Below, piece after piece: positions 3,179 through 21,912 of a stretch of DNA of 32,000 nucleotides. Positions within the stretch are counted from its first letter, which is position 1; each line of letters starts with the position of its first letter. The stretch covers positions 3,619,448 to 3,651,447 of the forward strand of contig NZ_CP036287.1 of NCBI RefSeq assembly GCF_007748095.1. The letters are read 5' to 3'. This DNA comes from Engelhardtia mirabilis (GTDB taxonomy: Bacteria > Planctomycetota > UBA1135 > GCA-002686595). The notes beneath the pieces are model-generated. The model had not been told where the DNA came from. It saw only the letters and a program-made list of their open reading frames with translations, and did no database searches. The position numbers and the translations under genes are program-made.

Positions 3179-5371
3179 ATGCCCCTCACGCCCCGTCACG
3201 CTGCGCTTCAGTCGATCGCAGAGGGCCACCCCGCGCCCTCTGCGCCGGCCGCGATCTCCTCCGGACTTCCGGAGTACTTCGGCTCCAAGGTCTTCAACGA
3301 CGCGGTCCAACGCCGCCGCCTGCCCAAGGCCGTCTACAAGGCCCTGCGGCGCACGCTGGAGATCGGCGCGCCCCTCGACGTCGAGCTGGCGGACTCCATC
3401 GCCAGCGCCATGAAGGACTGGGCCCTCGAGCACGGGGCGACGCACTACACCCACTGGTTCCAGCCCATGCACGGGCTGACGGCCGAGAAGCACGACGCCT
3501 TCCTGAGCCCGACGCTCGAGGGCGGCGCACTGCAGGAGTTCTCGGGCAAGGAGCTGATCCTCGGCGAGCCGGACGCGTCGTCCTTCCCCTCCGGCGGCGT
3601 CCGCAACACTTTCGAGGCGCGGGGCTACACCGGCTGGGACCCGGGTTCGCCGGCCTTCCTGCGTGAGACCGAGTTCGGCTCGACGCTGACCATCCCCACC
3701 GTCTTCGCGTCGTGGACCGGCGAGGCCCTCGACACCAAGACGCCGCTCTTGCGCTCCTGCGAGGCGCTCGATCGCCAGGCGCGGCGTCTGTTGACGCACC
3801 TGGGCGGCGAGCCCGTCGCCAAGGTCAGCGCCACCGTCGGTCCCGAGCAGGAGTACTTCCTGGTCGATCGACGCCTGCACCGCCTGCGCCCGGACCTGCA
3901 CAGCTGCGGCCGCACGGTGCTCGGCGCGCGCCCGCCCAAGGGCCAGGAGCTGGAGGACCACTACTTCAGCCTGACGCCGCGGCGCATCCTGAACTTCATG
4001 ATGGACCTGGAGTTCACCCTCTGGGAGCTCGGCGTGCCGGTCAAGACGCGCCACACGGAGGTCGCGCCGCACCAGTTCGAGCTGGCGCCCTTCTACGAGG
4101 CCGCGGCCCTGGCGACCGACCACAACATGCTGACGATGGAGGTCCTGCCGGACGTGGCCGCGCGCCACGGCCTCAAGACCCTGCTCCATGAGAAGCCCTT
4201 CGTGGGCGTCAACGGCAGCGGCAAGCACGTCAACTGGGCCATGGCGACCGACAGCGGCGACAACCTGTTGAAGCCCGGCAAGACGCCCCACGAGAACCTG
4301 CGCTTCATGACCGTCCTGGCGGCGGTCGTGCGCGGCGTCGACACCCAGCAGGAGCTGTTGCGGGCCACGATCGCCTCCGCCGGCAACGACCACCGCCTGG
4401 GCGCGAACGAGGCCCCGCCGGCGATCATCTCGGTCTTCCTCGGCGAGGAGCTGCAAGAGGTCGTCGACGCCCTGATCGAGGGTCGCGCGCCGAAGATCGG
4501 CGAGGGCCGCGGAAGCGAGCCCCTGAACCTCGGCGTCACCAGCCTGCCGCCCCTGCCGATCGACACCAGCGACCGCAACCGCACCTCGCCCTTCGCCTTC
4601 ACCGGCTTCAAGTTCGAGTTCCGCGCCGCGGGTTCGGGCCAGTCGATCGCCTTCCCGGTGACGGTGATCAACACCATGGTCGCCGACTCGATGGACTACC
4701 TCTCGGGCCTGATCGAGAGCCGCGGCGGCGACCCGGAGACCATCGCCAAGATCGTGCGCGAGACCCTCGCCGCCCACCAGCGCATCCTCTTCAGCGGTGA
4801 CAACTACTCCGAGGAGTGGCGTCAGGAGGCGGCGAAGCGCGGTCTCGCGAACCACGACAACACCCCCGCCGCCCTGGCGATCCTGCAGAAGGACGAGACC
4901 CTCGACCTGTTCGACCGCCACAACGTGATGACGCGGCGTGAGACCGCGTCGCGCGCGACGGTGCTCTACCAGGCCTACGCCGAGGGCGTCGTGGTCGAGG
5001 CCCTGACCCTGAACGAGCTGGCACGCACGTCGGTGCTGCCGGTGGCCCTGCGCTACCAGCGCGTCATCGCCGACGCCATCAAGTCCACCGCGGAGGCCGG
5101 TCACGGCATCCCGCTGGACGGCGAGCGCGCCCTCCTGGCCGAGGTCTCGAGCGAGATCCAGGGTCTGATGAAGACCACGGACGAGCTCGCTCGCGTGCAC
5201 CACACGATCGAGTCCGGCAGCCACGAAGCCCCCGCCCTGGCTTCGGCCGTGCGCGGCAATCTGGTCCCCGCCATGGCCGCCGTGCGCGCCCACTGCGACA
5301 AGCTCGAGTCCCTGGTCGACGACGAGCTGTGGCCCCTGCCGAAGTACCGCGAGCTGCTGTTCGCGCACTGA
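3179..5371 (+). CDS. glnN: glutamine synthetase type III
   Basis: 730 aa, the typical GSIII length. The N-terminal region (YFGSKVFND...HYTHWFQPMHGLTAEKHDAFL) and central GS catalytic-domain motifs match the GSIII family as I recall it. Confidence 0.93.
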   Translation: MPLTPRHAALQSIAEGHPAPSAPAAISSGLPEYFGSKVFNDAVQRRRLPKAVYKALRRTLEIGAPLDVELADSIASAMKDWALEHGATHYTHWFQPMHGLTAEKHDAFLSPTLEGGALQEFSGKELILGEPDASSFPSGGVRNTFEARGYTGWDPGSPAFLRETEFGSTLTIPTVFASWTGEALDTKTPLLRSCEALDRQARRLLTHLGGEPVAKVSATVGPEQEYFLVDRRLHRLRPDLHSCGRTVLGARPPKGQELEDHYFSLTPRRILNFMMDLEFTLWELGVPVKTRHTEVAPHQFELAPFYEAAALATDHNMLTMEVLPDVAARHGLKTLLHEKPFVGVNGSGKHVNWAMATDSGDNLLKPGKTPHENLRFMTVLAAVVRGVDTQQELLRATIASAGNDHRLGANEAPPAIISVFLGEELQEVVDALIEGRAPKIGEGRGSEPLNLGVTSLPPLPIDTSDRNRTSPFAFTGFKFEFRAAGSGQSIAFPVTVINTMVADSMDYLSGLIESRGGDPETIAKIVRETLAAHQRILFSGDNYSEEWRQEAAKRGLANHDNTPAALAILQKDETLDLFDRHNVMTRRETASRATVLYQAYAEGVVVEALTLNELARTSVLPVALRYQRVIADAIKSTAEAGHGIPLDGERALLAEVSSEIQGLMKTTDELARVHHTIESGSHEAPALASAVRGNLVPAMAAVRAHCDKLESLVDDELWPLPKYRELLFAH

Positions 5372-7586: not shown

Positions 7587-10500
7587 ATGAAGGACCCGGA
7601 GATCTGGCCTCCCTGGCTCGTCCGTATTCGCGCTCAGCAGGGAAACGAGGAGGGAGTCGGCGCTGGTCTGCTGATCGCCCCCGACCTCGTCCTCACCGCG
7701 TGGCACGTGGTGAACGTCGACGGCAAGTACCGTGGCACGGCGACGTCGGGCGGGACCCCGATGGCCGCGGCCAGGATCGACCTGGAGATCGGAGGCAAGC
7801 ACCGCCGGTCCATCCCGACCCCCCACCAGCGGCATGTGTCCTTCGCCGACAAGCCCGTCGACGACGAAGGCCAAGGCCGCGACTACGACCTCGCGCTGGT
7901 CCGGCTCGAAGAGGACCCGGTCCCGATCGATTCGGGCGACCTCCTTCCGATCGCCCGCGGTGTGCGACGACTCGAGTACCTGGCCCTCGGTGACCTCGGT
8001 CCGGACGAGCCCTTCCAGGTCGTAGGGTTTCCGGGTGGGAGCCTGCGCACGAAGCGTTTCGACGACGGTGCCCCCGACCCGGAGCGTGCCGGCGACGAGT
8101 TCTACGAGGTCCACCTGGGCCACCGAGTTCCCGAGGGCTACAGCGGCGGACCCATTCTGGCCGAGGTCGACGGCCAAGCTCTGTGCCTGGGGCTCGCGAG
8201 CCTCGGTGGAGCCACGGTCGGCTCTTCGGTCCAGACCTTCTCGGGAGCGATCATCGAGTTCCTCGATCAACAGAAGGTCCTTCGACGCGAAGGCGATCGG
8301 CTTCAGGTACCGACCGAGGACCTCGGCCGATTGCTCCTGCGCAGGCCACTCGAGTGCATCGCGGAACGCAACGACCGGCTTCCGCCGATCTTGTCCCGGT
8401 CCGCCCGCAAGGAGTGGAAGCTGCACGACCTGTTCCAGGAGCGGATCGTCGTGGACCGGGCAGCGACGGGCGGTGGCGACAGTGACGGTAACGCGAAGGC
8501 CGGTGGCCTGAGGGAGTTGGTGGATTGGACGCCCACCGTCGACTCGCCCCCGCGATGGGTCCTGCGAGGCGCGGGGGGAACCGGCAAGACGACTCTCCTG
8601 CGCCACCTCGCCTTCGAGCTGGCCCGCGAGGCGAATCAGGCCGGGGATGGCGCAGCGCTGCCACCGGTGGCCATCTTCCTGCGCCTGCCCCTCATCGTCC
8701 GTCGAGGGCCCGACTGGAGAGCGGCGCTGTTCGACGAGCTGAGAGATCGCGTGGATCGTGCTGCGATCCTCACGAGGGCGCTCAGCTCGCGCGTTTCCGA
8801 ACCCCGGATCCTGCTGCTGCTCGACGGGCTCGACGAGGTCGACGCCGGAGAAGTGACCGAGAACACCATCTCGCTCCTGCTTCAGGGCCTGCCCGATCAC
8901 CTCCCCGGAGTCGGCCTGGTCGTGGGCACTCGCCCGACGGGCTTCGACGACCGAGAGCCGGCGCTCACGCGACACTGGAACACCGCTTCGGTCGAGCCCC
9001 TGGATCGAGATCACCAGATCCGACTGGTCACCGAGGTGTCGAAGGCGATCGGCCGGCCTTGCTCAGAGAAGGCGACCGCCGCATGGGTCCATCAGATCAG
9101 TCGGGACGAGCGATTCGCCGACATCCGCGGCAACCCACTCTGGTTGACGCTGGCCGCCCTCGCCGTGGACCCGGAGACGGGGGCTCCACCGCCGTCCATG
9201 TCGGGCCTGCTCGCCAAGGCAGTCGACCACCTTGTAATGGGCATGCACCGCGGCGACCTCGAGCCCAGAGCTCGCCGCAGACGTACTCCCGTGGCAGGTC
9301 CGATCCCCAGCGCGGCCCGTCCGGTCTTGGGAACGATCGCACTCGCCATGACCCTCCAGCGTCAGGACGAACTCCGCTTCGACGACCTGGTCGAGGTCTG
9401 CAAGAACCTCCGCAAGAGAGCGGACCACGACGTCCGAGGCAGCGATGAACTCTGGGCTCGGTTGACGGAAGCCTGGGAATTGCTCGAGGACGATTCGGAG
9501 GAGAGCATCCTCGATCAGCTTTCGCTCGGCACCGATATCCTGAGCCCGCTCGAGGAGGACGGCGAACAAGTGGAAGACGGGGGATCCGACGCCGACGAGC
9601 TCTGGTCCTTCAGACATCGGACCGTGAAGGAGTTCCTCTCTGCCGATCAGCTCCGCCGCATGCTCGAAGGCGACGACGCTCCTCACGCCCAACAGCTGAT
9701 CGAGGCAGGCCTCGACGCCGACCTCGAGGGCTCGGTCCGGCACTGGGCCGGACCTGCGGCCCTTCTCGTCGAGATGCTCGACGACGCGACCGGGGCGGAA
9801 CGCGTGCTCCGGTGCCTCGCACCGAGGGATCCCGAGGCCGCTCGCCGCGCCCTGCTAGGAAGACCGAACGCCACGGTGGGCTCGATCCACATCGTCTTGG
9901 CGTCGCTCGAAAAGGAAGGGGACCGCGCGGCGGTGATCGAGCAGATCGATCGGCTGATCGAGGATCGTCAGGAGGCCTTCGATCTCCTGCGAAGCCTCGG
10001 CCTCGATCCCCGGATCCGAGCGGACCTGTACTTCGTCGACGAAGCACTGCTGGCCTTCGGAGTGCGGCACGAGGATCTCGCGGACGAGGCCGATGCCGCG
10101 AGACTGCGGATCTACGAGGAGCTGCCGGTCGAGCCGACGTGGCGTGCACCGTTCGAGCGGACGTTCGGGGATCCGGGGGTGCCCCTGTGGCGACCGGTAA
10201 CGCGGCACCTGACGTTCGGTTACGGCGATCGCGAGCTGGAGCAGGTGACGGAGCAGCCGTTCCAGATCTCGGCGGTTCCGGTGACGGAGGAGATGTACCG
10301 GATATTCGACCCGCACGATGATCAGCGGAAGTCGGAGCCAGGTCTCCTTCCGGCGCGCTCGGTCAGTTGGTGGGGTGCGATGGCCTTCTGTCGCTGGGCC
10401 GGAGCGAAGCTCGGTTTCGGTCTCGCCGGGAGCCTGCCGACAGAGCGTCAGTGGGAGTGTGCCGCGCGGGCCGGGACCGAGAGCGACTACTGGTTCGGCC

Positions 10501-10811
10501 CCGAGGCGCTCGACGAGCATGGGTGGTATGGGCAGAACTCTGAGTCTCGTGCCCACGATGTCGCGACTCGGCCGCCGAACGGCGACCGGCCCCAGCAGCC
10601 CAACCCGAACGGCCTTTTCGATGTCCACGGAAACGTCTGGGAGTGGTGTGTGGACCTCTTCGGCCGCGACGGCCCGAGGCGCGTGTTGCGCGGCGGTTGC
10701 TTCTGGTACGCGGCCGCGAGCTGTCGCTCGGGGTTCCGCTACTGGGACCACCCGGCGGACCGCGACCGGCTCCGGGGCTTCCGCGTCGTCCTCCCGGCCG
10801 ACCTTCGATGA
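7587..10811 (+). CDS. trypsin-like serine protease / NACHT (STAND) NTPase / FGE-sulfatase (C-type lectin fold) protein; DGR target 1
   Basis: ATG at 7587, 1074 aa. S1 triad motifs LTAWHV, DLALVRL and GYSGGP. Walker A GAGGTGKTT (about nt 8570-8600) and Walker B LLLLDGLDEV (about 8810-8840). NACHT-end FRHRTVKEFL. C-terminal SUMF1/FGE motifs RQWECAARAG, HGWY, NPNGLFDVHGNVWEWC and RVLRGG...GFRVVLP. VR1 lies at the 3' end. Confidence 0.92.
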   Translation: MKDPEIWPPWLVRIRAQQGNEEGVGAGLLIAPDLVLTAWHVVNVDGKYRGTATSGGTPMAAARIDLEIGGKHRRSIPTPHQRHVSFADKPVDDEGQGRDYDLALVRLEEDPVPIDSGDLLPIARGVRRLEYLALGDLGPDEPFQVVGFPGGSLRTKRFDDGAPDPERAGDEFYEVHLGHRVPEGYSGGPILAEVDGQALCLGLASLGGATVGSSVQTFSGAIIEFLDQQKVLRREGDRLQVPTEDLGRLLLRRPLECIAERNDRLPPILSRSARKEWKLHDLFQERIVVDRAATGGGDSDGNAKAGGLRELVDWTPTVDSPPRWVLRGAGGTGKTTLLRHLAFELAREANQAGDGAALPPVAIFLRLPLIVRRGPDWRAALFDELRDRVDRAAILTRALSSRVSEPRILLLLDGLDEVDAGEVTENTISLLLQGLPDHLPGVGLVVGTRPTGFDDREPALTRHWNTASVEPLDRDHQIRLVTEVSKAIGRPCSEKATAAWVHQISRDERFADIRGNPLWLTLAALAVDPETGAPPPSMSGLLAKAVDHLVMGMHRGDLEPRARRRRTPVAGPIPSAARPVLGTIALAMTLQRQDELRFDDLVEVCKNLRKRADHDVRGSDELWARLTEAWELLEDDSEESILDQLSLGTDILSPLEEDGEQVEDGGSDADELWSFRHRTVKEFLSADQLRRMLEGDDAPHAQQLIEAGLDADLEGSVRHWAGPAALLVEMLDDATGAERVLRCLAPRDPEAARRALLGRPNATVGSIHIVLASLEKEGDRAAVIEQIDRLIEDRQEAFDLLRSLGLDPRIRADLYFVDEALLAFGVRHEDLADEADAARLRIYEELPVEPTWRAPFERTFGDPGVPLWRPVTRHLTFGYGDRELEQVTEQPFQISAVPVTEEMYRIFDPHDDQRKSEPGLLPARSVSWWGAMAFCRWAGAKLGFGLAGSLPTERQWECAARAGTESDYWFGPEALDEHGWYGQNSESRAHDVATRPPNGDRPQQPNPNGLFDVHGNVWEWCVDLFGRDGPRRVLRGGCFWYAAASCRSGFRYWDHPADRDRLRGFRVVLPADLR
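10669..10803 (+). repeat. DGR variable repeat VR1
   Basis: 135 nt colinear with the TR. By hand alignment, 15 mismatches fall at TR adenines and 1 elsewhere. Encodes RVLRGGCFWYAAASCRSGFRYWDHPADRDRLRGFRVVLPAD. Confidence 0.9.
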
Positions 10812-10828
10812 TCGATCTTTGAGATGTG
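10805..10828 (+). repeat. post-VR conserved 24-nt element, copy 1
   Basis: TCGATGATCGATCTTTGAGATGTG directly after VR1. It contains the stop codon and is absent after the TR. Confidence 0.8.
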
Positions 10829-11136
10829 TTCGAATGTGGACCCGAACGGACGTTCCATTCCTCGCGCGGCCCTCGATGACCGAACAGAATTCCGGTCGTC
10901 CCGTTGTTCCGGTCGTCTGCGACCGATCGGTTCTCGAACGCCCCAGATCCCCGGGAACCGAGCCTCCGGTCCCCGCCCAGAAATGGCCCGTTGTGACCGG
11001 CCGACCCGACATCCGGAAGCAGGACGACCCTCAACGGCCATCAGGTTCCGGATCGGGCCTACCCCCTCCACACCCGAGGAGCGCGGCTCGGCCACCAAGG
11101 TCAGCCCGACGCCCTCGACCGCTCTGACGGCTTTCC

Positions 11137-12162
11137 TCAGACGCACAGGACGCTTCCCAACGCTCCTGCCCAACCCTCAGCAGGAATGGCCGGCCCGGTC
11201 CCACGAACGTACCTGGCCGCCCGTGCGCCCATCCGCCTCGCGTGCCTCGGGAGGGGTTCGATCCCGCTGCGGGTTACCAAGTGTCCGAGGGCATCGAGGC
11301 GACCGCTGCAGGATCGCGGGCGAGCCCCGGGGCGCTTCAATCGCAGACCGAGTCGCTCGTCGAGGTACCGCCCCACGTCGTCCCGCGCGGCCCGCAAGGC
11401 CGACCTAGAGTCACCGAACAGGAACAGATCGTCGACGTAGCGGACATAGCCGGGCACGCGAAGCTCGCGCGCGACATGGCTGTCGAGGCCCAGCGGCACA
11501 ACGTGGGCCGCCAAGACCTGGCTCGTGTACGCACCGATGGGCAGTCCCTCGCCGGGCGGCGGCCAATCGGGATCCAGTCGAGCGAAGGCTCGTACGTGAC
11601 GATCGTCGTAGAGGCCCCGCCCGGACTCCAGGATCCGATCGACGACCTGCAGGAACCGCTCGTCGCGGATCCGGCGACGGAGCAGGGACCGGACCAGCTC
11701 GATCCGGATGCTCGGGAAGTAGCTTCGAACGTCCAGATGCACGAACCACGCATGACGGCGGACCAGCTCCAGGATCCGGAGCAACGCGCGATGGGTTCCC
11801 CGTCCGGTGCGGCAGGCGTAGTCCGCGTCCGATAGGGATCGCTCGAGCACAGCCTCGACCAGGCGCGCGACCGCCGTGTGCACCACTCGATCCAGGACCG
11901 ATGCTCGTGCGATGACCCGGGGCTTGGGATCGTGCAGGAACAAGAGATCGAAGGCCCCGTGCCGCCAACGGGCGTCCACGAGCGCGGCACGCAACTCGCG
12001 AAGCTCGGATTCCCGGCGGAACAGGAAGGTCGCGACATCCGCCCGCCGCCGCTTCCCCCGGACGGTGACCCGCGCAGCCTCGTCGAGCCGGTCCTCGTCG
12101 ACCAGCTGCTCGAAGAGGCCGCCCGTGGTCCTGGTCAAGGTGCCCCTCCGGACGCTCGCCAC
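11137..12162 (-). CDS. DGR-type reverse transcriptase
   Basis: 341 aa with a GTG start. RT motifs HLDVRSYFPSI, LPIGAYTSQVLAAH (the DGR-specific IGxxxSQ) and YVRYVDDLFLF (YxDD). Lies 124 nt downstream of the TR. Confidence 0.92.
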   Translation of the reverse strand: MASVRRGTLTRTTGGLFEQLVDEDRLDEAARVTVRGKRRRADVATFLFRRESELRELRAALVDARWRHGAFDLLFLHDPKPRVIARASVLDRVVHTAVARLVEAVLERSLSDADYACRTGRGTHRALLRILELVRRHAWFVHLDVRSYFPSIRIELVRSLLRRRIRDERFLQVVDRILESGRGLYDDRHVRAFARLDPDWPPPGEGLPIGAYTSQVLAAHVVPLGLDSHVARELRVPGYVRYVDDLFLFGDSRSALRAARDDVGRYLDERLGLRLKRPGARPRSCSGRLDALGHLVTRSGIEPLPRHARRMGARAARYVRGTGPAIPAEGWAGALGSVLCV

Positions 12163-12286
12163 CGGCGGTGACTACGGGAACGGAGGGGCGAGGTCGGACG
12201 AGCGGGCCGGAAGGTCCGGCTGCGACGTCCGCGGGGAGGGGCCTGATCGCGGATCCGCTCGCCTCGCGAGCTCCGTCCGCGGGCTG

Positions 12287-12421
12287 GGTCGGCCGGGAGG
12301 ACGACGCGGAAGCCCTGGTTCCGGTTGCGGTTCGCCGGGTGGTTCCTGTTCCGGTACCCCGAGCGACAGTTCGCGGCCGTGTTCCAGTAGCTACCGCCGC
12401 GCATCACGCGCCTCGGGCCGT
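12287..12421 (-). repeat. DGR template repeat (TR)
   Basis: A 135-nt non-genic copy of the target 3' ends. It reads RVMRGGSYWNTAANCRSGYRNRNHPANRNRNQGFRVVLPAD, with seven AAC codons and about 25 adenines. It sits between avd and the RT and lacks the 24-nt post-VR element. Confidence 0.9.
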
Positions 12422-12795
12422 GGGGCCCCTGCCCCTGCACCGGACTTGGAGAATCGCCGGGAGCTGCGGCCCCATCCACCGAGCATGCGGCCGATCGTGT
12501 CGAGCTCCGCCGAAGCGAACCGCATCCGTCGCTTCGTCAGGTAGCCCAGCGACTCGGCGAGCCGCAGCAGCACCCGGAGGCGGACCACACCTCGATCGGC
12601 GGCGCGACGATGGTCGTCCCTCTCGGCCGGGAAGGTCAATGCTATCGAGACATCCGCGACGAGGTCCTGGACGGCGTCGGCGACCCGTCCGGCCGAGCAC
12701 ATGGCTTCGGGTTGCGGCCATCGCGCGACCTCGGCCAAGAGCCAGGTCGCGAGGTCATGGCTGCGTACGTAGAGAGGCGCGCGTCGCCAAGTCAC
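12391..12795 (-). CDS. avd: accessory variability determinant (Avd, four-helix-bundle family)
   Basis: 134 aa with a GTG start overlapping the upstream stop (GTGA). PLYVRSHDLATWLL at the N-terminus and LDTIGRMLGGW near the C-terminus are Avd hallmarks. The 3' end overlaps the TR. Confidence 0.8.
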   Translation of the reverse strand: MTWRRAPLYVRSHDLATWLLAEVARWPQPEAMCSAGRVADAVQDLVADVSIALTFPAERDDHRRAADRGVVRLRVLLRLAESLGYLTKRRMRFASAELDTIGRMLGGWGRSSRRFSKSGAGAGAPRPEARDARR

Positions 12796-13382
12796 CGCTC
12801 GCGCCTCCCGAGCTTCTCGCTCCAGCGGATGAGGCCCCCCAAGGTCGGAAGGACCTCCGACTCAATCCGCGCGGCCCAGGCGAGCTGCTCCCCCTCCGGC
12901 TCGGCGTCCTGGATCAACAGGAGGCCCACGCAACGGCTCATCAAGCACCGGGCGCGGCGGAGGGCCTCGCCCTTACGATCCGCGTCGTAGGCGTGGACGC
13001 CCTCGCAGACGGCCAGCAGTCCGGACAGGAGCGCGCGCTCCGCAGCGGACGACGATGATCCTGTCGATGCCGCGGTTGCTCGCATAGCCGCGAGAACCGC
13101 GCGCCCACGACGAAAGCACTCGACGTCCTCCACGGATCGCCGACGGTCACCGTGCCGCACGGCCGCCCTTGAGGGAAGGGCCTCTTCGACCGCCTCGCGC
13201 ACATCGTCGGCTCGTCGTTGGAGCGACTGACGCTGATCCTCGGTCAAGGGCAGGCTCTCGCGCCGGATGCGCCAGGACTTGCCATGCTTGGCCCCCCGCA
13301 ACTCACCCCGTGCGAGCCGTGCACGGACGGCGCGCGGGCTCACCCCGAGAACGACGGCAGCTTCGCGAACGCTCAGTTCCAT
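12792..13382 (-). CDS. excisionase/MerR-type HTH protein with helical C-terminal domain (DGR-associated)
   Basis: MELSVREAAVVLGVSPRAVRARLARGELRGAKHGKSWRI is a typical N-terminal HTH. The C-terminus ...LPTLGGLIRWSEKL faintly echoes the Avd C-terminus. Alternative ATG starts at 13505 and 13517. Confidence 0.65.
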   Translation of the reverse strand: MELSVREAAVVLGVSPRAVRARLARGELRGAKHGKSWRIRRESLPLTEDQRQSLQRRADDVREAVEEALPSRAAVRHGDRRRSVEDVECFRRGRAVLAAMRATAASTGSSSSAAERALLSGLLAVCEGVHAYDADRKGEALRRARCLMSRCVGLLLIQDAEPEGEQLAWAARIESEVLPTLGGLIRWSEKLGRRER

Positions 13383-13732
13383 CCCGGTGGATCGAACCGG
13401 CTGGATGGATCGAGGTTCCGATCCAGAAGACGATCTCGTGGACGTCGTGGAACTCGTGACCTCCTCGAGGATGCCGATGACCGGATCGAGGGACGAAGTG
13501 GCCATCGACGGCCGCATGAGTAGCCATCAATGGCCGCAACTGGCCGTCGCGACGTGTGAGCGGTCAGTGCGGGAGGTCGAACCGAGTCCAATCGGAAACG
13601 ACACCGGCACGCGACGGCCGAACGGCGCAGGGGTCGCCTCGGTCTCGGGATCCCACCGGAACTGGGTCCGGCCACGTGGTGCCGAGAATCGGCACTGCGC
13701 GTCCCCTCGGCGACGCTCGGGCCGCTCGAAGA

Positions 13733-13756
13733 CACATCTCAAAGATCGATCATCGA
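13733..13756 (-). repeat. post-VR conserved 24-nt element, copy 2
   Basis: The reverse complement reads TCGATGATCGATCTTTGAGATGTG. It contains the stop codon of target 2. Confidence 0.8.
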
Positions 13757-16700
13757 AGCTCGGCCGGGAGGACGAGGCGGAAGCCCAGGTTCCGGTTGCG
13801 GCCCGCCGGGTGGCTCCTGCTCCGGTACCCCGAGCGACAGCCCGCGGCCGTGTCCCAGTAGCTACCGCCGCGCAACACGCGCCACGGGCCGTCGCGGTCG
13901 AAGAGGTCCAGACACCACTCCCAAACGTTCCCGTGGACATCGAGAAGGCCGTTCGGGTTGGGCTGCTGGGGCCGGTCGCCGTTCGGCGGTCGAGTCGCGA
14001 CATCGTGGGCACGAGACTCAGAGTTCTGCTCATACCACCCATGCTCGTCGAGCGCCTCGGGGCTGAACCAGTAGTCACCCTCGGTCCCGGCCCGCGCGGC
14101 ACACTCCCACTGGCGCTCGGTCGGCAGGCTCCCGGCGAGACCGAAACCGAGCTTCGCTCCGGCCCAGCGACAGTAGGCCATCGCACACCACCAACTGACC
14201 GAGCGCGCCGGAAGGAGACCTGGCTCCGACTTCCGCTGATCATCGTGCGGGTCGAAGACCCGGTACATCTCCTCCGTCACCGGAACTGCCGAGATCTGGA
14301 ACGGCTGCTCCGTCACCTGCTCCAGCTCGCGATCGCCGTAACCGAACGTCAGGTGCCGCGTTACCGGTCGCCACAGGGGCACCCCCGGATCCCCGAACGT
14401 CCGCTCGAACGGCGCACGCCACGTCGGCTCGACCGGCAGCTCCTCGTAGATCCGCAGTCTCGCGGCATCGGCCTCGTCCGCGAGATCCTCGTGCCGCACT
14501 CCGAAGGCCAACAGTGCTTCGTCGACGAAGTACAGGTCCGCTCGGATCCGGGGGGCGAGGCCGAGGCTTCGCAGGAGATCCAAGGTCTCCATACGATCCT
14601 CGATCAAGTGCTCTACCTGAGAGATCACGGCCCCCCGATCCTCCTCCTCCTCGAGCGATGAAAGGACGATCATGACAGCATTCGTCGAAACCGCTCGACT
14701 CGCCATCAACGCGCGTCTCGAGATCGCCGGCGCATCCTCGAGGCTCTCGAGCAGGACTTCGACTTCCCCTTCGACGAGTCGTTCCGCCAGCATGCCGAGC
14801 GGCTCGGACCAGAAACGCGCGACGTCGTCCTCTCCATTGTCGCTCTCAGCGTCACCATCCATGCTCCCCTGTTCTGCGCCAACCAGCTCGAGCCAGTCGC
14901 ACCAAGAACGCAATCCGGCCGGACCCTGCGAACTCAACCAGCCTTCATTCGTGCTCAACCTGAGCGCACTCAGGATGCTTCGCGCATTGTCAGCCAGACG
15001 AACGTCGTCAGCATCGATCTGCGAGAGCGCTCGGTCGAACCGCTGCAGAAGTGCACGACGCACAGCCCCAGCGGCCGACCGCGCGCGAGCAAGAACATCG
15101 TCCTGCCCCCCTGCCGCCGTCCACCTCTCCCAGAGCCATTCCGACGTCAGAAACTCGAGCGTCGACCGGTGCCAGAAGCGCCAGTCCTCGTCAATGTCAT
15201 TTCCGCGTCGTCGGATCCTCCGCTCTGGCGGTGTCAGGATCGAATTGCGTTCGAGCCACCTGAGGACGTCATTCGGAGCGCAACGTTCCTTCAGATCCAG
15301 GAGGTCCCGGCGAAGGTCGGTCCATGGCGTCGGAGCGCTTCCATCAGCGCCGCGCTCCGAGTCCTTCAGATCCTCGAGCCATGTCTCCATGACGCTGCGA
15401 GGGACCTGTACCAGGCCCTCCGAAGACATCCGGTGGGCCAACCATCGGAGCACGGGCCGGACGGACCGTGGAAGCGCCTCGGGCTGCACCGAGTCGTCGT
15501 CCGCCACTTCGTGGATCTGCCGCTGATCGCGGCGGTGCTTGCCCGCCTCCAGTCGACGGAGGATCGCGTCGAGCAGGTCGACCCGCGAGCCTGGCTCACG
15601 GTCCTCCTCGAAGATCACGATGGCTGCCATGGTCAACCACAGCGGGTTCCCGCGTTCCTCGTCGTAGCGGGCATCGACTTGGATCCGGTCGACCCAGTCC
15701 TCGAGTGCCGCCGCGTCCATCGTCGGCTTCGCGGGGCCGCCGAACTTCCGGTGCTGCCCCACCAGCTTGACGAGCAATTCCTTCTGCCGATCGGCACCCA
15801 GAGGTTCGACGCTCGCCAAGCTCCACGCTTTGAACTGGGCGCTCCGTTCAAGGTAGCGTGACGGTCTGGTTCCGAGCGCCACGGGCGTTCTGGGCAGCTC
15901 GCGCGGGATCGAAGCGAGCAGGGCCCCCACGTTCGGCCGCTCGGCCTTGCTCACCTCGTCGTAGCCGTCCAGCAACAGCACCAGCTCACCGCGAGGATCT
16001 TGCGCGCCGAGCAGCTCCCCCGTGTAGTGGTCGACCTTTTTCGTGACGTATTGGACGAGGTCTTCGAACGGACGAGTGCCGACGTTCTTCAGGTCCGGTA
16101 GACGGACGAGCAAAGCGACCCTGTCGCCTTCGTCGATGGGACGATCTGAGCCGGTCGCGAGGCGAGCGTCCGCGAGCCGCTTGGCCAGCTGGCGAAGGAT
16201 CGTCGTCTTGCCCGTTCCGGCTTCACCGCGAAGGATGATCCGGGGTTGATCCGATTCCGCGGAGGGTGAGTTCGAGCCGGGCCCGGACGGGACCTCACTT
16301 GCCGGTGACTCCTCGTCGAACGCATCCTCGAGCCCGAGGTGTCGCGCGAGGGACGTCTGTCCATGCACCGCGGCGCGAACCGCCTCCCCGTCCCGCGGAA
16401 CCTCCAAGGTGACGCGATCGACGAAGACGTCGTCGAGGCTGAGATCGGGTGCCCATGGGAGGACGTCGCACTCGGCCGAGAGCCGACCGAGAAACGGTTT
16501 CAACAGCAGTGAGCGAAGATCGGGTGAGCTCGGTAGCGCGAGCGATTCGCCCCCGCCGTCCCGCTCCTCGATCACCCGCCGAGCGTTGTCGAGGAACGGT
16601 CCGACGGTGCCTGCCAGCAGGTAGCCCGAGAACGGGTGATTGGACCCGCCGACGATGGTGATCCCGACCCAGTGGAGATCCGATCCGACACGCAGCAGCA

Positions 16701-17310
16701 GGGGCCCTCCACTGAAGCCGCCGTGGACCCTCCCGTGTTCGGCCCCAAGATCACGAGCCTCCCGATGGAGGTGGTCAGGGTCCCAGCCCTCGAGCCGTGC
16801 GCTCTGGTCGTCTGGGCTCTCGACGCCGTCGGGGAAGCCCCAGATCGCGAACGACGAACCGCGGGCGACCAGCGCTCGGGCCTCGAGCTCACCAAGACCA
16901 CGGGTCAGCGACGCAACGGCATCCCCCTCGGCCAGGCCAGGAACCCTCAGCAGTGCCAGGTCCACCGAGCGCCCGACCCCAGAGAGGTCGCCCGACGCGA
17001 ACAGGACGTCGGCCGACGACGGGTCGTACGGACCGATCGAGTGAATGGACGGTTCGGAGTCCAGTGCCGTGGGGTGATCGGCAAGTGTCACCACGACGCC
17101 CTTGGCAGGATTCGGCGACTCGGACCGGCCACCACTGAACGTCCCGGTCCGGCTGAGAACGTGCCAGGCGGTCAGAACCCATCCCGGCGCGACGATCACG
17201 CCGGAACCGAAGTTGTCATCAGTCGTCGTCTTGCCGTTCTTGGTCTTCTCGACCCGGCACTGGATGCGAACCAGGGATGGCACCGCCGAAGGCCAATCGA
17301 GATCAGGCAA
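13750..17310 (-). CDS. trypsin-like serine protease / NACHT (STAND) NTPase / FGE-sulfatase protein; DGR target 2 (cis target upstream of avd-TR-RT)
   Basis: 1186 aa. The apparent start is TTG at 17308-17310; the GTG at 17281-17283 is the alternative. Triad motifs LTAWHV, DLALLRV and GFSGGP. Walker A GEAGTGKTT (about nt 16195-16230) and Walker B LVLLLDGYDEV. WRFWHRSTLEFL. The C-terminal FGE domain is nearly identical to that of target 1. Confidence 0.9.
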   Translation of the reverse strand: MPDLDWPSAVPSLVRIQCRVEKTKNGKTTTDDNFGSGVIVAPGWVLTAWHVLSRTGTFSGGRSESPNPAKGVVVTLADHPTALDSEPSIHSIGPYDPSSADVLFASGDLSGVGRSVDLALLRVPGLAEGDAVASLTRGLGELEARALVARGSSFAIWGFPDGVESPDDQSARLEGWDPDHLHREARDLGAEHGRVHGGFSGGPLLLRVGSDLHWVGITIVGGSNHPFSGYLLAGTVGPFLDNARRVIEERDGGGESLALPSSPDLRSLLLKPFLGRLSAECDVLPWAPDLSLDDVFVDRVTLEVPRDGEAVRAAVHGQTSLARHLGLEDAFDEESPASEVPSGPGSNSPSAESDQPRIILRGEAGTGKTTILRQLAKRLADARLATGSDRPIDEGDRVALLVRLPDLKNVGTRPFEDLVQYVTKKVDHYTGELLGAQDPRGELVLLLDGYDEVSKAERPNVGALLASIPRELPRTPVALGTRPSRYLERSAQFKAWSLASVEPLGADRQKELLVKLVGQHRKFGGPAKPTMDAAALEDWVDRIQVDARYDEERGNPLWLTMAAIVIFEEDREPGSRVDLLDAILRRLEAGKHRRDQRQIHEVADDDSVQPEALPRSVRPVLRWLAHRMSSEGLVQVPRSVMETWLEDLKDSERGADGSAPTPWTDLRRDLLDLKERCAPNDVLRWLERNSILTPPERRIRRRGNDIDEDWRFWHRSTLEFLTSEWLWERWTAAGGQDDVLARARSAAGAVRRALLQRFDRALSQIDADDVRLADNARSILSALRLSTNEGWLSSQGPAGLRSWCDWLELVGAEQGSMDGDAESDNGEDDVARFWSEPLGMLAERLVEGEVEVLLESLEDAPAISRRALMASRAVSTNAVMIVLSSLEEEEDRGAVISQVEHLIEDRMETLDLLRSLGLAPRIRADLYFVDEALLAFGVRHEDLADEADAARLRIYEELPVEPTWRAPFERTFGDPGVPLWRPVTRHLTFGYGDRELEQVTEQPFQISAVPVTEEMYRVFDPHDDQRKSEPGLLPARSVSWWCAMAYCRWAGAKLGFGLAGSLPTERQWECAARAGTEGDYWFSPEALDEHGWYEQNSESRAHDVATRPPNGDRPQQPNPNGLLDVHGNVWEWCLDLFDRDGPWRVLRGGSYWDTAAGCRSGYRSRSHPAGRNRNLGFRLVLPAELR
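13758..13892 (-). repeat. DGR variable repeat VR2
   Basis: 135 nt colinear with the TR. 10 mismatches at TR adenines and 2 non-A mismatches, both in the last 25 nt. Encodes RVLRGGSYWDTAAGCRSGYRSRSHPAGRNRNLGFRLVLPAE. Confidence 0.9.
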
Positions 17311-17313
17311 GCT

Positions 17314-18651
17314 TCACGCCCCCGGGATGCGGTCGAGGATCTCGCGCGCCCATTGTTTCGAGGTCACCGATCCGTGCTCCCCAACGTGCTCCAGCCCGGC
17401 AATCCAACCGGCACGATGGGACTCCGGCACCTCGCTCCAGTTGTCCGCATCGGCCAGAACGTGAGCCAGTGCCAGCCCGCACAGCTGGACCTCGAACTCC
17501 TCGTCGTAGAGCAGGTGGGAGAACGCCGCGTCATCGGGCAGCTCGAGTTTCTCGCGAAACTTCTCGAGTAGCTCCTCACTGCCGACCGCACCGCCGCCGT
17601 CGACGACGACGATCTCACCGTGGCCATCGGAGCTACCGCGCTGAACCGCCGTTCCCCTGGCAGGACCTTGATCCTGAATAACATCGGTCGCCCTGAGTCC
17701 TCTGCGGTTGAACCGGTTCAGCGACTCGATGAAGATCGATGCAGCGAGCATCGCAACCGGCTTCCCGCTCCAGGATTCGCCGCGCGGACCGTTTTCGAGC
17801 GAACGAGGTCCCGACAACGCTTTCCAAACGGCCGCTTCGAGCAACGCCGGGGCCTTCTCGATCGTGGCGTCCGAGATGAAGATGCTCTTCGACGCGCCCG
17901 CCTTCCGAGGTCGGCGCGCGTAGCCGATGTCGATGACTCGAGCCGTCACCAGCCGCAGGACAGTCTCGAGCAGCTTACTCCCAAGGATCGTCTGCACCAC
18001 GAGGCCGGGACCGCTCTCAGGGATCGGGCACAGACCCCAGCGCATCATCGGATTCTTTACGACCTCGTCGTCGTCCGCGCCCTCCTTCTTCCTCTGCTCC
18101 CCGGTCCAGAAAGTGCGGCCGGTCTCGATGTCCGGCAGCGCACGCCGCGGTCCACGAAGGACCGCCCGTAGCTGGGACCCGACAGATTCAAAGGGGTCGA
18201 ACTTCAGAGCCTCTACGGCCACCCTCCAGTCGTCACTCGACCGCGCCGCCCGCTGGAACTGGTCCATCCGCTTCTTCTCGGACTTCTGGCTTCCGTATCG
18301 GAACAGGCTCTCGTCGATCCAATCCTCGGAGTAGGGGTGGAGTGCGAGCAACAGCGCGTGACCGCGAACTCGATCGTCACTGGTTCGGGCCGACAGCGTC
18401 CACTCTCCCCGATCCAGTTCCTCGGGGAACGGATAGGGCTTCGCGTGGTACTCCATCTCGACGTCGTCCACGAAGACGTAGTTGCCATCGGCCGCCTCGT
18501 CGTAGGCGATGAGCGTCGGGGAGATCGGATGCCGCGAGGCGCTCTCGCTGACGGGCTCCATGGGGAACTCCGTCATCCCCCCGGGGGGCGGATCGGGCGG
18601 CTCGGGCGGATCTCCGGCTTCGTACAGCGGACGGACGTCGAACTCGCTCAT
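17314..18651 (-). CDS. hypothetical protein, translationally coupled partner of DGR target 2
   Basis: ATG at 18649-18651 (MSEFDVRPLYE...), 445 aa; the longest ORF extends to 18738. High GC3 and no motif I recognise. Its stop at 17314-17316 lies one codon before the target 2 start, in the same frame. Confidence 0.7.
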   Translation of the reverse strand: MSEFDVRPLYEAGDPPEPPDPPPGGMTEFPMEPVSESASRHPISPTLIAYDEAADGNYVFVDDVEMEYHAKPYPFPEELDRGEWTLSARTSDDRVRGHALLLALHPYSEDWIDESLFRYGSQKSEKKRMDQFQRAARSSDDWRVAVEALKFDPFESVGSQLRAVLRGPRRALPDIETGRTFWTGEQRKKEGADDDEVVKNPMMRWGLCPIPESGPGLVVQTILGSKLLETVLRLVTARVIDIGYARRPRKAGASKSIFISDATIEKAPALLEAAVWKALSGPRSLENGPRGESWSGKPVAMLAASIFIESLNRFNRRGLRATDVIQDQGPARGTAVQRGSSDGHGEIVVVDGGGAVGSEELLEKFREKLELPDDAAFSHLLYDEEFEVQLCGLALAHVLADADNWSEVPESHRAGWIAGLEHVGEHGSVTSKQWAREILDRIPGA

Positions 18652-18810
18652 GGCACTCGGAAACGATCGGGTGATTCGGATCGGCCGGGTCCACAGGCAA
18701 CCTCCTCCCGGCTCCGTGGTCGAACCTAGCGCCGCCAACGGGGTCCGGGAAGGCCCTAGCCGGCGTCGACACGCCGCTTGTCAGGCTGCTAGTCTCCCGA
18801 GACCCGGCCC

Positions 18811-21800
18811 ATGCTCCCGAGCACAGACAGATCTCGACCCTACGTCCTGCGTGTCACCTCCGACGACGGGAACCCGGCGGCGGGGATCCTGGTCTCGGAG
18901 AACTATGCGGTGACCTGCTGGCACGTCGCCAACGGCAGTGGAAAGTTCAGCGAGAAGGTCCCCAACTCCCGTGAGGCGGCATGGGGGCTCTGCGCCGGCG
19001 GTCGGCCGGCCGAGGTCGTGGCCTGGGGCGACCTCCCTGGGATCGGCTATGAGGTAGACGTGGCTCTGCTGAAGCTCGAGGGTGCGCCAGCGAGTCTCGA
19101 GAGTGCCGACCTTGCCCTGGCGTACGACTCCCGACTCTTCGACCAGCTCCTCGACAGTGTTTCCTACCTCGAGGTGGAGGGGTTCCCTCGCCACTCGCCG
19201 ACCTCGCACGTCGAATCCTGCCGGCCACACAAGGGATCGGGATCGTCGAGTACGAGCCGGGGTGGCCAGGTCACCGAGTTCGGCCTCTTCGCCCGCGTCC
19301 ACGAGGGAGTCAGCGGCGGACCCGTGGTCGCCGGACGTGGAGGCGAGGAGGTCTGCGTCGGGATGGCCTGTCTCGGCAGCTCGAGGTCGCTGCAGATGGC
19401 GGCCGTGTCGTCGGGTGAACTGCTGGCGCTCCTCGAGCACCACTTCGACGGAGAGCTTCCCCATGCGGTCCGAACCAGGCCCCTCGACGACTGGCTCATC
19501 GACCATGGCGTGATCGAAACGCGCGGGTCCTATCTCCGTGCACTGAGGGCTCGGGTCGAAGAGGACCACGACTTGCTCAGGATGCTCGGGGTCGATGACC
19601 TCGCCGACGAGTTCTTCGATCGGGTCTACGTCCGACTCGAGGTCGGAGTCAGTCCCTCGTTCGCGCAGCGTCTAGCCGATCTAGGCGATGAAGAAGACGC
19701 CAGCATTCCCCCGTCTGGTGTCCGCCTAGACCAACTGCTGTCGATCCCGCCTGCCCGGTTCGGCATCGCCGGGCCGCGATTCGTCCTGCGCGGCGAACCA
19801 GGCTCGGGCAAGACCACGATCCTGCGCCAGCTCGCCTGGTCCCTCGCCGGCGACGACGACGCCGCCTGGACGCCGGTAAGGATCGGGCTCCCCGACTTCG
19901 CGCGCTGGAGAGCGGGGCAGAATCGAAAGGGCGACGCCTGGGACAAGCTGCTCGACTACCTCGAGGAGCAGCAGGACATTGCCGATGCTCGCCGCGAGGC
20001 GCTCGTGGCCGAGCGCGAGCATGGGCGTCTGCTGCTGCTCCTCGACGGGCTCGACGAGGTCCGCGGCGAGTTGAGAACCACCACTCGCTCCTGGCTCGCG
20101 AACCTCTCCGAACAGATGGGCTCGTCCGCCATCGTCGTGGCGACGCGGACGATTCCGTATCGCAAGCCCGCGGGCGGCTACGTGGAGGCGGACGTCGAGC
20201 CCATGGGAATCGCTCAACAGAAGAAGTTCCTGAGCGCCTGGATCGGCGACGAGGGGGCGGCCGAGGATCACATCAAGCGCTGGGCCGACCTCCCCCACAG
20301 CCGATTGTCGCTTCTGGCCGGGAACCCGCTCTGGTTGACGTACTTCGGCTTGCTCTTGCGCCGTGGCGAGACGCCCGATGAGTCTCGCAGCGCACTCTAC
20401 GAGCAGGTCCTCGAGCTGCTCCTCTCCGGTGAGTTCCAGGATCCTCCGAAGAAGAACCCGAATCCGGCCGTGATGCGCGCTGGGCTCGTGTTCCTGGCGG
20501 TCCAGATGAGCAAGAAGGGCGAGACAGCAGTTCGCAAGTCGGACCTCGACGCCCTATTCCAAGAGCAAGGCGTCGAGACGGACGTCGCCGTCCGCGCCGT
20601 GCTCAACGAATGGAGCCGACGCCCTGACGATTTCCTCCAGGACGTGCAGGCGATCACGGGGATCATCGGTCGATACGGCGAGAAGGAGGGGAGGAACTGG
20701 CGTTTCTGGCACGGCCAGCTTCGTGAGGTCCTGGTCATGATTTGGCTGCGGAGCCTCACCCGCGACGAGCAGCTCGCCGAGGCCGCCGCGCTGGCGGAGG
20801 ATCACCTCGGCTTCTTCGCCGAACCGTTCGCGCTCCTGGTCGGCACGGATGAGCTGGCCGACAAGGACGAGATGATCGAGCGGCTCGTCGAGCACAATCC
20901 GGTCCTGGGGCGCAGAGTGCTGGCCAGTGCTACAGGAGTGTCGCCGTCGACGGTCGAGAAGGTGCTGGGGCTCGATTCGTCGGACCCTGAGCGTCGCGGC
21001 GAGATTCTCCTGGACCTGCCGAACATCCTGGGTCGCGGGGAGGGGGCACGGGCCGCAACGATTCAACTCGTCGAACGGCTGTGGATGGCGAGCCGGTCCA
21101 GCGAGGAGGAGATGTGGGCGGACTGCTACCACCTGGACGAGCTACTCGTCGCGCTCGAGGAGGAACCGGGTGAGCTAGTGTCCACTCGTAGAGCCCTGTA
21201 CTTCCGGCGCTTTGGACAACCGGACCGTCCGACCTTGAAGGAGTTGTTTCCGCCGATCCACGGGCTCACCCCCTTTCCTCGGATCGATCCCGGTTCATTC
21301 GCAATGGGTGACGGGGACGCTCCCAGTCGCCAGCAGGTGAAGATCCCAACCCCATTCCGGCTCGGGGCAACTCCCGTCACCGAGAGCCAGTTCAGCTTGA
21401 TGTCTGGCAGGGAGATCGAGACGAGTAGCCGTAAGCCGAAGGGCGAGATCAACTTCTTTGGAGCCATGCTGTACAGCAGGTTCCTCGGTTGGGCGATGGG
21501 ATCGGATCAGCCGGGCGACCTGCCGACCGAGGCTCAGTGGGAGTACGCAGCGCGAGCAGGCAACGAGGGTGACTACTGGTTCAGCCCTGGGGCCCTGGAC
21601 GACCACGGCTGGTACGAAGGCAACTCGGGAGGTCGGGTCCACGACGTCGCCACTCGCCCCCCGGATGGCGAGGAGCCGCAGCAGCCGAATCCGAACGGCC
21701 TGTTCGACGTGCACGGGAATGTTTGGGAGTGGTGCCAGGACCTTCTCGGCGGCGCCGGCCCGTGGCGCGTGATGCGCGGCGGTAGCTTCTGGGACTCGGC

Positions 21801-21912
21801 CGCGAACTGTCGCTCGGGGTACCGGATCAGGAACCACCCGGCGAGCCGCCTCTGGGACCTGGGCTTCCGCGTCGTCCTCCCGGCCGACCGGAGCTTGGCC
21901 ATCGATGATTGA
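18811..21912 (+). CDS. trypsin-like serine protease / NACHT (STAND) NTPase / FGE-sulfatase protein; DGR target 3
   Basis: ATG at 18811, 1033 aa. Triad motifs VTCWHV, DVALLKL and GVSGGP. Walker A GEPGSGKTT (about nt 19795-19825) and Walker B LLLLLDGLDEV. C-terminal FGE motifs AQWEYAARAG, HGWY and NPNGLFDVHGNVWEWC. VR3 lies at the 3' end. Confidence 0.9.
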   Translation: MLPSTDRSRPYVLRVTSDDGNPAAGILVSENYAVTCWHVANGSGKFSEKVPNSREAAWGLCAGGRPAEVVAWGDLPGIGYEVDVALLKLEGAPASLESADLALAYDSRLFDQLLDSVSYLEVEGFPRHSPTSHVESCRPHKGSGSSSTSRGGQVTEFGLFARVHEGVSGGPVVAGRGGEEVCVGMACLGSSRSLQMAAVSSGELLALLEHHFDGELPHAVRTRPLDDWLIDHGVIETRGSYLRALRARVEEDHDLLRMLGVDDLADEFFDRVYVRLEVGVSPSFAQRLADLGDEEDASIPPSGVRLDQLLSIPPARFGIAGPRFVLRGEPGSGKTTILRQLAWSLAGDDDAAWTPVRIGLPDFARWRAGQNRKGDAWDKLLDYLEEQQDIADARREALVAEREHGRLLLLLDGLDEVRGELRTTTRSWLANLSEQMGSSAIVVATRTIPYRKPAGGYVEADVEPMGIAQQKKFLSAWIGDEGAAEDHIKRWADLPHSRLSLLAGNPLWLTYFGLLLRRGETPDESRSALYEQVLELLLSGEFQDPPKKNPNPAVMRAGLVFLAVQMSKKGETAVRKSDLDALFQEQGVETDVAVRAVLNEWSRRPDDFLQDVQAITGIIGRYGEKEGRNWRFWHGQLREVLVMIWLRSLTRDEQLAEAAALAEDHLGFFAEPFALLVGTDELADKDEMIERLVEHNPVLGRRVLASATGVSPSTVEKVLGLDSSDPERRGEILLDLPNILGRGEGARAATIQLVERLWMASRSSEEEMWADCYHLDELLVALEEEPGELVSTRRALYFRRFGQPDRPTLKELFPPIHGLTPFPRIDPGSFAMGDGDAPSRQQVKIPTPFRLGATPVTESQFSLMSGREIETSSRKPKGEINFFGAMLYSRFLGWAMGSDQPGDLPTEAQWEYAARAGNEGDYWFSPGALDDHGWYEGNSGGRVHDVATRPPDGEEPQQPNPNGLFDVHGNVWEWCQDLLGGAGPWRVMRGGSFWDSAANCRSGYRIRNHPASRLWDLGFRVVLPADRSLAIDD
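21755..21889 (+). repeat. DGR variable repeat VR3
   Basis: 135 nt colinear with the TR. 11 mismatches at TR adenines (counting the boundary base) and 1 non-A mismatch. Encodes RVMRGGSFWDSAANCRSGYRIRNHPASRLWDLGFRVVLPAD. Confidence 0.9.

Follow-up and report, generated by a model that had tools for sequence, protein, structure and literature searches.

Bordetella phage BPP-1 carries a diversity-generating retroelement (DGR) with the order mtd-avd-TR-Sp-brt, where TR is the template repeat, Sp the spacer, and brt the reverse transcriptase (RT) gene (architecture B1, PMC5758913). A DGR with the same avd-TR-spacer-RT arrangement on one strand is present in the bacterium Engelhardtia mirabilis, within a stretch of 32,000 nucleotides of contig NZ_CP036287.1 (assembly GCF_007748095.1, positions 3,619,448 to 3,651,447 of the forward strand). 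This whole stretch is referred to here as the window, and coordinates are counted from its first letter. The region 11137-13382 is the core operon of this chromosomal DGR and consists of a gene for a helix-turn-helix (HTH) protein with a four-helix bundle (HTH-4HB), avd, the TR, a structured spacer RNA, and the RT gene.

The accessory classes catalogued for DGRs are avd, HRDC, MSL, and CH1, none of which has an HTH (Wu et al. 2018, PMC5758913). What turns cellular DGRs on, and by what route the mutagenised cDNA reaches and replaces the variable repeat (VR), are open questions. Avd, HRDC, MSL, and CH1 offer no sequence-specific DNA binding; the HTH-4HB protein is a testable candidate for regulation or targeting.

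The second group of described systems is that of the STAND/NACHT-CLec "antigen sensor" DGRs, where CLec denotes a C-type-lectin domain (Dore et al. 2024, PMC10907252; Kaur et al. 2020, PMC7159879). Their targets share with those of the window an effector, a NACHT/STAND NTPase, and a C-terminal FGE-sulfatase/CLec domain that holds the VR. As in the antigen sensor DGRs of multicellular bacteria, several paralogous targets are served by one DGR, and degenerate extra copies occur in related genomes (PMC10907252, PMC7159879). The sole HTH mentioned for these systems replaces VMAP beside DGR 8 (PMC10907252/PMC7159879).

A Conserved HTH-4HB Gene Coupled to avd

The HTH-4HB protein (RefSeq WP_419191501.1) carries a DNA-binding domain, is conserved, and is translated together with Avd within a defined lineage of DGRs. 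It has 196 amino acids, is encoded at 12792..13382 on the minus strand, and is composed of a winged HTH, a long helix, a linker, and a four-helix bundle. The reading from ATG 13382 is contained in a longer open reading frame (ORF) of 241 amino acids (12792-13517, minus strand), and the shorter start is taken because almost all homologues are 190-200 amino acids long and begin MELSVREAA. RefSeq annotates the product only as a "helix-turn-helix domain-containing protein". Both the HTH and Avd proteins of the window are identical or 99% identical to the Engelhardtia mirabilis Pla86 and Pla133 proteins.

The avd gene (12391..12795, minus strand, 134 amino acids) starts within the stop of the HTH gene at a GTGA overlap, which the initial annotation had pointed out and which the sequence confirms. 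The overlap is ATGA or GTGA in all 9 of the 9 loci whose junction was inspected. Among related loci found with the HTH protein (numbered with an L), the HTH gene lies directly upstream of avd-TR-RT in every one with enough flank; it does so beside NACHT/STAND-CLec targets in L001, L002, L004, L006/L007, L008, and L009. In L011, L013, and L014, which are short contigs, avd comes immediately after the HTH gene. The metagenome-assembled genomes (MAGs) from which these loci come are labelled Planctomycetota, Acidobacteriota, Pseudomonadota, and Myxococcota. When three Avd homologues are taken as the starting point, the HTH gene precedes avd with an overlap of 4 nt in two of the three loci (L017 and L018). 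Rather than a local oddity, the HTH gene is thus a conserved component of these DGRs.

When the C-terminal 153 residues of the HTH protein are used in an exhaustive profile search, the family comprises 384 representatives of 50%-identity clusters at E<=1e-3 (204 of them at E<=1e-10). Nearly all members are 190-200 amino acids long and the C-terminal match begins at residue 44, so the combination of an HTH with this C-terminal domain is a fixed architecture. HTH_17 is present in 103 of 106 family members. A word-indexed search returned 7 homologues of 192-199 amino acids, a GTDB genome scan with the single protein returned one locus, and a metagenome scan returned 6 loci, mostly short. No relatives of the protein were found among IMG/VR and INPHARED/GenBank phages. 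The reading of the gene as a spurious ORF is ruled out by this conservation. The HTH-4HB protein is found in hundreds of sequence clusters from cellular DGRs whose targets are STAND antigen-sensor proteins, and the effector domains of these targets differ among loci (trypsin, TIR, SIR2, DUF4062, and metallophosphatase).

Several related loci hold decayed DGRs. In L001 (10588-11633), the RT N-terminus and the 3′ part of the TR are deleted, and in L003 (885-1500), HTH residues 1-93 run on into Avd residues 38-108. In L012 (6001-6602) and L016, HTH residues 1-104 are fused straight to the RT N-terminus. L017 (7012-7554) contains an RT remnant with no Pfam match, and a separate RVT_1 gene of 443 amino acids lies upstream.

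Domain Structure of the HTH-4HB Protein

The N-terminal 43 residues of the protein form an HTH of the excisionase/MerR type, as initially annotated. They match HTH_17 (PF12728) with E 2.4e-10 and 41 bits (Pfam cut-off 27), and the protein matches the TIGR01764 "excisionase family" with 36 bits (cut-off 28.8) as well as the phrog_1840 excisionase. In Foldseek comparisons, residues 1-43 superimpose on Pukovnik Xis (4j2n) and BldC (6ama) with a root-mean-square deviation of 1.0-1.3 A and 26-35% identity, and the Xis HTH is the sole match in a sequence profile search of the PDB. Xis and BldC bind cooperatively to arrays of DNA repeats. The full HTH-4HB protein is basic, with a pI of 10.35 (family mean 10.6).

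An AlphaFold2 model built with 106 sequences has a predicted local distance difference test (pLDDT) score of 94.4 for the full protein. Its predicted helices comprise the winged HTH (1-43), a long helix (48-68), and, after the linker, four further helices (88-107, 113-130, 134-157, and 164-195). The C-terminal domain modelled alone has a pLDDT of 96.8. When this domain is compared with the PDB by Foldseek, the top six matches are all from 2gsc, 4dwl, and 2rld (template modelling (TM) score 0.59-0.70, 105-118 columns, probability 0.87-1.0, E 0.07-1.2). The same three entries are again best for the C-terminal domain in the full-length search (TM up to 0.77), and lower ranks go to generic bundles (e.g., cytochrome b562 and PMEI). 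The entry 2gsc is Xcc0516, a PF05635 pentamer of four-helix bundles; 4dwl is the Bordetella Avd (bAvd), and 2rld is named "S23 ribosomal protein family". Against BFVD, Foldseek returns mostly HTH matches, with one "Avd-like protein" at rank 25. The UniRef name of a mis-called C-terminal fragment of 97 amino acids is "Four helix bundle protein", a name whose underlying signature is not visible. Pfam and NCBIfam scans of the 106 members return HTH families only, and a Pfam scan of the C-terminal domain alone gives just a chance Toprim match.

Avd and the Reverse Transcriptase

The initial annotation read the region as a complete DGR core, with the HTH gene, avd, TR, and RT in this order on the minus strand. 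The ORF list and the sequence bear out each of these features at its coordinates, and the avd-TR-RT layout is borne out by the adenine pattern of the TR and VRs, the Avd matches, and the RT matches.

Avd is a strongly basic protein (pI 10.6-11.4) with an N-terminus that is conserved in 28 homologues. It matches PF22296 (E 8e-9, 36 bits; curated cut-off 40), NF033474 (E 1.4e-13, 51 bits; curated cut-off 80), and phrog_3206, "Avd protein of DGR" (E 6.5e-12), and a profile of the 28 homologues matches bAvd 4dwl and 8ub7_B in the PDB. The matches agree over four libraries, though under the curated cut-offs, and they uphold the identification of the 134-amino acid ORF as Avd. Its UniRef name is "S23 ribosomal protein", for which the signature behind the name is likewise not visible.

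The RT is encoded on the minus strand at 11137..12162 (341 amino acids from GTG 12162) and contains the motifs IGAYTSQ (11518-11538) and YVDD (11428-11439), both of which had been noted and were located in the sequence. It matches Pfam RVT_1 with E 4.6e-10 and phrog_1423 with E 3e-63. Its best PDB match is the Bordetella DGR RT (bRT) 8ub7_A, with E 1.3e-24, followed by chains labelled retron-type RT (E 2.4e-15) and group II (E 1.1e-14). The RT falls far below all cut-offs of the NCBIfam group II, retron, and Drt RT models. As the initial annotation proposed, the enzyme is of the DGR type rather than a retron, group II, or Abi RT, as judged by its motifs and by the first rank of bRT among its PDB matches.

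The RT probably starts at TTG 12138 instead of GTG 12162, which would make it 333 amino acids long. Two observations argue for the downstream start: the N-termini of homologous RTs correspond to residue 9-10, and GTG 12162 is covered by a conserved stem-loop (12142..12189, minus strand). The spacer between TR and RT (12139..12286, minus strand) would then be about 148 nt long. The length of 124 nt given in the initial annotation is arithmetically right for the distance from the TR end at 12287 to GTG 12162, and it applies if translation starts at that codon.

The stem-loop at the 3′ end of the spacer is common to 10 DGR loci of the clade, counting the window and nine others. Its outer stem measures 9 bp, its interior loops read TTCNNGTAG and GANNGTC, and its inner hairpin varies. 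Pairing in the outer stem is 100%, and 5 of the 9 pairs show compensatory changes, a result reached by 0 of 500 shuffles, with the caveat that the 3′ arm was located by complementarity. Rfam has no family that matches within 11900-13800, the stem-loop included.

Template Repeat, Variable Repeats and Targets

The TR (12287..12428, core 12290-12420, minus strand) is a near-repeat of VR1, VR2, and VR3, and the avd 3′ end runs about 30-38 nt into its 5′ end. Adenines of the TR account for 35 of the 38 TR/VR differences across the 131-nt core and the three VRs. They occupy 23 of the 131 core positions, all 23 at codon position 1 or 2 and mostly in AAC codons, and the positions vary among VR1, VR2, and VR3. 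These differences are consistent with past retrohoming activity, as far as the sequence pattern can tell.

The DGR diversifies the C-type-lectin tips (FGE-sulfatase fold) of three paralogous Trypsin-NACHT STAND proteins, which are encoded by immune-sensor-like genes. The targets number three rather than one; by Pfam, all are Trypsin_2-NACHT-FGE-sulfatase (CLec) proteins, and their FGE-sulfatase domains match with E 1e-25 to 7e-31; each VR lies at the 3′ end of its gene. Target 1 (7587..10811, plus strand) has 1074 amino acids and carries VR1 at 10670-10800. Target 2 (13750..17310, minus strand) has 1186 amino acids, carries VR2 at 13761-13891, and lies directly upstream of the operon on the same strand, as had been described. 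Target 3 (18811..21912, plus strand) has 1033 amino acids and carries VR3 at 21756-21886; it is encoded on the opposite strand, at a distance of 5.4 kb upstream of the operon, and VR3 is 92% identical to the TR.

The TR/VR homology closes with an identical GC-rich run of about 27 nt, which is followed in the VRs by a specific 24-nt element, TCGATGATCGATCTTTGAGATGTG. Directly 3′ of VR2, the element spans the stop codon (13733..13756, minus strand). An identical copy follows VR1 at 10805-10828 (plus strand), and a copy with 1 mismatch follows VR3 at 21902-21925 (plus strand). It has 3 matches in the window against 0 expected and none in the TR, and in the alignment the TR departs from the VRs exactly where the element begins. 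The element is thus found 3′ of all VRs and not of the TR, and therefore distinguishes recipients from the donor as a segment of the initiation of mutagenic homology (IMH) type does. DNA folding found no hairpin 3′ of the window VRs that is better than those of shuffles, and merely a weak 4-bp hairpin is present. The related loci L004, L008, and L009 have perfect GC hairpins just 3′ of the stop/VR of the upstream target, e.g., CCAGGGGC-GGCA-GCCCCTGG.

Targets 1 and 2 also share an inverted duplication of 939 nt that is 93% identical (9891-10829 and 13732-14670). It spans the C-terminal 300 or so codons of both targets plus 18 nt past their stops, and points to a recent duplication or gene conversion of the CLec end onto differing N-terminal halves. 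A further ORF of 474 amino acids (17314-18738, minus strand) stops 4 nt before target 2 starts. Neither Pfam (E<=0.001) nor PADLOC (E<=0.01) gives a match; the ORF may encode a partner for the STAND protein, or it may be spurious and due to the high GC content.

The window has a G+C content of about 69%. The region is flanked by a C-5 cytosine DNA methylase gene (27420-29360, plus strand) and a type III glutamine synthetase gene (3179-5371, plus strand). Among the large window ORFs put through Pfam, no integrase, phage, or plasmid family was found. PADLOC assigns the HTH protein, Avd, and the targets to no defence system and returns merely generic RT and P-loop matches.

Repeats Upstream of the HTH Gene

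The region between target 2 and the HTH gene is 367 nt long and contains a tandem 20-nt repeat, TGCGGCCRTYGATGGCYACT, present twice with a 22-nt period (13497..13538, minus strand). The repeat has a palindromic core, sits 115-156 nt before the HTH start codon, and has 2 matches in the window against 0.01 expected. It is a candidate operator. The ATG of the longer, 241-amino acid HTH ORF sits within it.

In the related locus L002, CCGGCAA occurs 7 times in the 416 nt upstream of the HTH gene and once in the remaining 4.5 kb. A TTGCSG half-site is enriched upstream of the HTH genes in 4 loci only; because its choice was post hoc, it carries no weight in the argument. The operator-like repeat of the window is unlike the post-VR element. 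A sigma-70 promoter scan found no site, and terminator-like matches are no more numerous than in shuffled controls.

Proposed Role of the HTH-4HB Protein

The HTH-4HB protein is, on balance, probably a DNA-binding accessory factor dedicated to the DGR, acting as a regulator of the operon or as a tether associated with Avd. The initial annotation had suggested that the protein might control the moment of diversification or help to bring the complex to DNA. In the proposed mechanism, it would bind DNA sequence-specifically, and its bundle would be an oligomerisation module of the Avd/23S rRNA intervening sequence (IVS) type that serves self-assembly or contact with the Avd pentamer. The HTH would bind the repeats at 13497-13538, in the promoter region that precedes the HTH gene. 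Through this binding, the protein would control whether avd, the TR RNA, and the RT are transcribed, and thereby when diversification takes place. As a second and non-exclusive option, the HTH-4HB protein could tether the Avd-RT-RNA particle to DNA. Of these options, the favoured one is a regulator dedicated to the DGR, with control over the transcription of its avd, TR RNA, and RT; what goes beyond a conserved and co-translated gene is inferred.

A number of results weigh against this reading. Foldseek E-values for the IVS and Avd matches are weak (0.01-1.2), and four-helix bundles arise often. Pairwise BLASTP of the HTH protein against Avd gives no match, and hhalign comparisons of profiles of 8 or 106 sequences with the 28-sequence Avd profile, run in local, low-mact, and global modes, give probabilities of 0.1-0.2%. 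The Pfam and NCBIfam models for Avd and IVS proteins (PF22296, PF05635, and TIGR02436) are matched by 0 of the 106 family members. The C-terminal domain is near neutral (pI 8.0), unlike the basic Avd. A DGR of the same Avd/RT clade with nSTAND-CLec targets, found in a Thermoanaerobaculia MAG (L019, 3139-4850), has no HTH gene, so the gene is frequent but dispensable in the clade and not essential to the core reaction. Moreover, the upstream repeats differ in sequence between loci, and the TTGCSG half-site is not enriched in the window.

The initial annotation had noticed that the C-terminus of the HTH protein, with its GGLIRW, faintly echoes Avd. The echo has some support at the level of the predicted fold, with weak statistics: the top PDB matches are IVS and Avd proteins, and the best hhalign alignment, itself non-significant, is colinear across the helices and places GGLIRW on GRMLGGW. 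It does not stand as sequence homology, since BLAST, hhalign, and the Pfam/NCBIfam models are all negative; profile searches of the C-terminal domain against the Avd/23S-IVS families, put forward in the same annotation, gave no significant match in either hhalign or the family scans. With weak Foldseek E-values and insignificant profiles, likeness to Avd therefore holds for the predicted fold and not for homology. The C-terminal domain probably has an Avd/IVS-like fold, as judged from the predicted model, and the chances that it shares common descent with Avd are about even.

A more specific relation to Avd is possible and rather unlikely. The HTH-4HB protein would then be a diverged Avd paralogue with an acquired DNA-binding head that joins or replaces protomers of the Avd pentamer. 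It would co-assemble with Avd and the RT, anchor the RT-Avd-RNA particle to DNA, and link the retrohoming particle to its own promoter or to an element flanking the VR; for example, recognition of the 24-nt post-VR element could help to select or open the target site for cDNA integration. The top fold matches to Avd and IVS pentamers fit this explanation, as does the conserved translational coupling to avd, which suggests stoichiometric co-production. The 24-nt element, which is partly palindromic, follows the three VRs and occurs neither in the TR nor in the rest of the window, and the weak hairpin after the window VRs, compared with the GC hairpins of relatives, leaves room for a protein-based determinant. 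However, no Avd homology is demonstrable by sequence, and conservation after the VR is expected in any DGR with multiple targets, either as an IMH or through gene duplication, of which the 939-nt duplication shared by targets 1 and 2 is an instance. The DGR of L019 lacks the HTH gene, and the repeat that resembles an operator does not resemble the post-VR element. If this explanation were true, the HTH-4HB protein would be the first protein in a DGR that is dedicated to determining regulation or the choice of target site.

The HTH-4HB protein could instead be an ordinary small regulator of the STAND targets or of the operon, with an unrelated dimerisation bundle and no physical role in the DGR, and this is somewhat unlikely. 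HTH autoregulators encoded by the first gene of an operon are common, repeats are present upstream of the HTH gene, and sequence similarity to Avd was not found. Nevertheless, the HTH gene is tied to avd and not to the targets, whose effector domains vary by locus, and all of the top six C-terminal PDB matches come from the one family that serves DGRs as a cofactor. A far less probable idea is that the protein is an excisionase (recombination directionality factor) and belongs to a mobile element in which the DGR is a chance passenger. It draws on the HTH_17/TIGR01764 and phrog_1840 matches and on the Foldseek match to Pukovnik Xis, but that match is limited to residues 1-43, and the C-terminal part of 150 amino acids is family-specific. 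Pfam annotation of the genes next to the HTH gene shows no integrase domain, either in the window or in the related loci inspected, and phage relatives are absent from IMG/VR and INPHARED. Together with the 43-residue extent of the Xis match, these two negatives lead to the rejection of an excisionase role. The reading of a DGR-dedicated accessory factor, with transcriptional gating as its favoured role, is retained.

Comparison with Known Systems

The core of the window DGR mirrors the avd-TR-brt layout of BPP-1, as initially annotated, with the same order on one strand and a cis target upstream. The VR at the 3′ end of that target gene and the adenine-specific TR/VR differences are further points of likeness, as are the avd 3′ end, which abuts or overlaps the TR, and an RT that is closest to bRT in the PDB. 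Both systems also have a long interrupted spacer stem just before the RT, and by analogy of position and shape, the conserved stem-loop may be the counterpart of the long interrupted stem that bRT binds in the Bordetella Sp RNA (Sp 95-139; bioRxiv 10.1101/2023.10.23.563531). Unlike the BPP-1 phage DGR, the window DGR is cellular, has three Trypsin-NACHT-CLec STAND targets, and contains an extra HTH-4HB gene coupled upstream of avd.

The C-terminal part of the HTH-4HB protein (residues 85-196) resembles the subunits of bAvd and 23S rRNA-IVS pentamers (PF22296 and PF05635; 4dwl, 2gsc, and 2rld) in its predicted up-down four-helix bundle of the same length. A GGhxRW-like motif in its last helix lines up with Avd GRMLGGW in the best, non-significant hhalign alignment. 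Unlike bAvd and IVS proteins, it has no significant sequence or profile similarity to that group, is near neutral, and is fused to a winged HTH and a long helix. The N-terminal part differs from Xis and BldC, which are single-domain proteins of about 55-70 amino acids, in that the HTH heads a protein of 196 amino acids and has no integrase context.

The window DGR also differs from the antigen sensor DGRs, for which no avd-coupled gene with an HTH and a four-helix bundle is described in the main text and supplements (PMC10907252, PMC7159879). No mention of an avd-coupled HTH gene was found in Roux 2021, in the IJMS 2023 neighbourhood survey and its supplements, in the BMC Genomics 2024 survey, or in the cyanobacterial survey, and a description elsewhere is possible. 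Annotation pipelines label the gene just "helix-turn-helix domain-containing protein". The DGR itself is of a known type, and its new part is the conserved HTH-4HB accessory gene, which adds one gene to architecture B1 (avd-TR-RT) and defines a four-component DGR sub-architecture.

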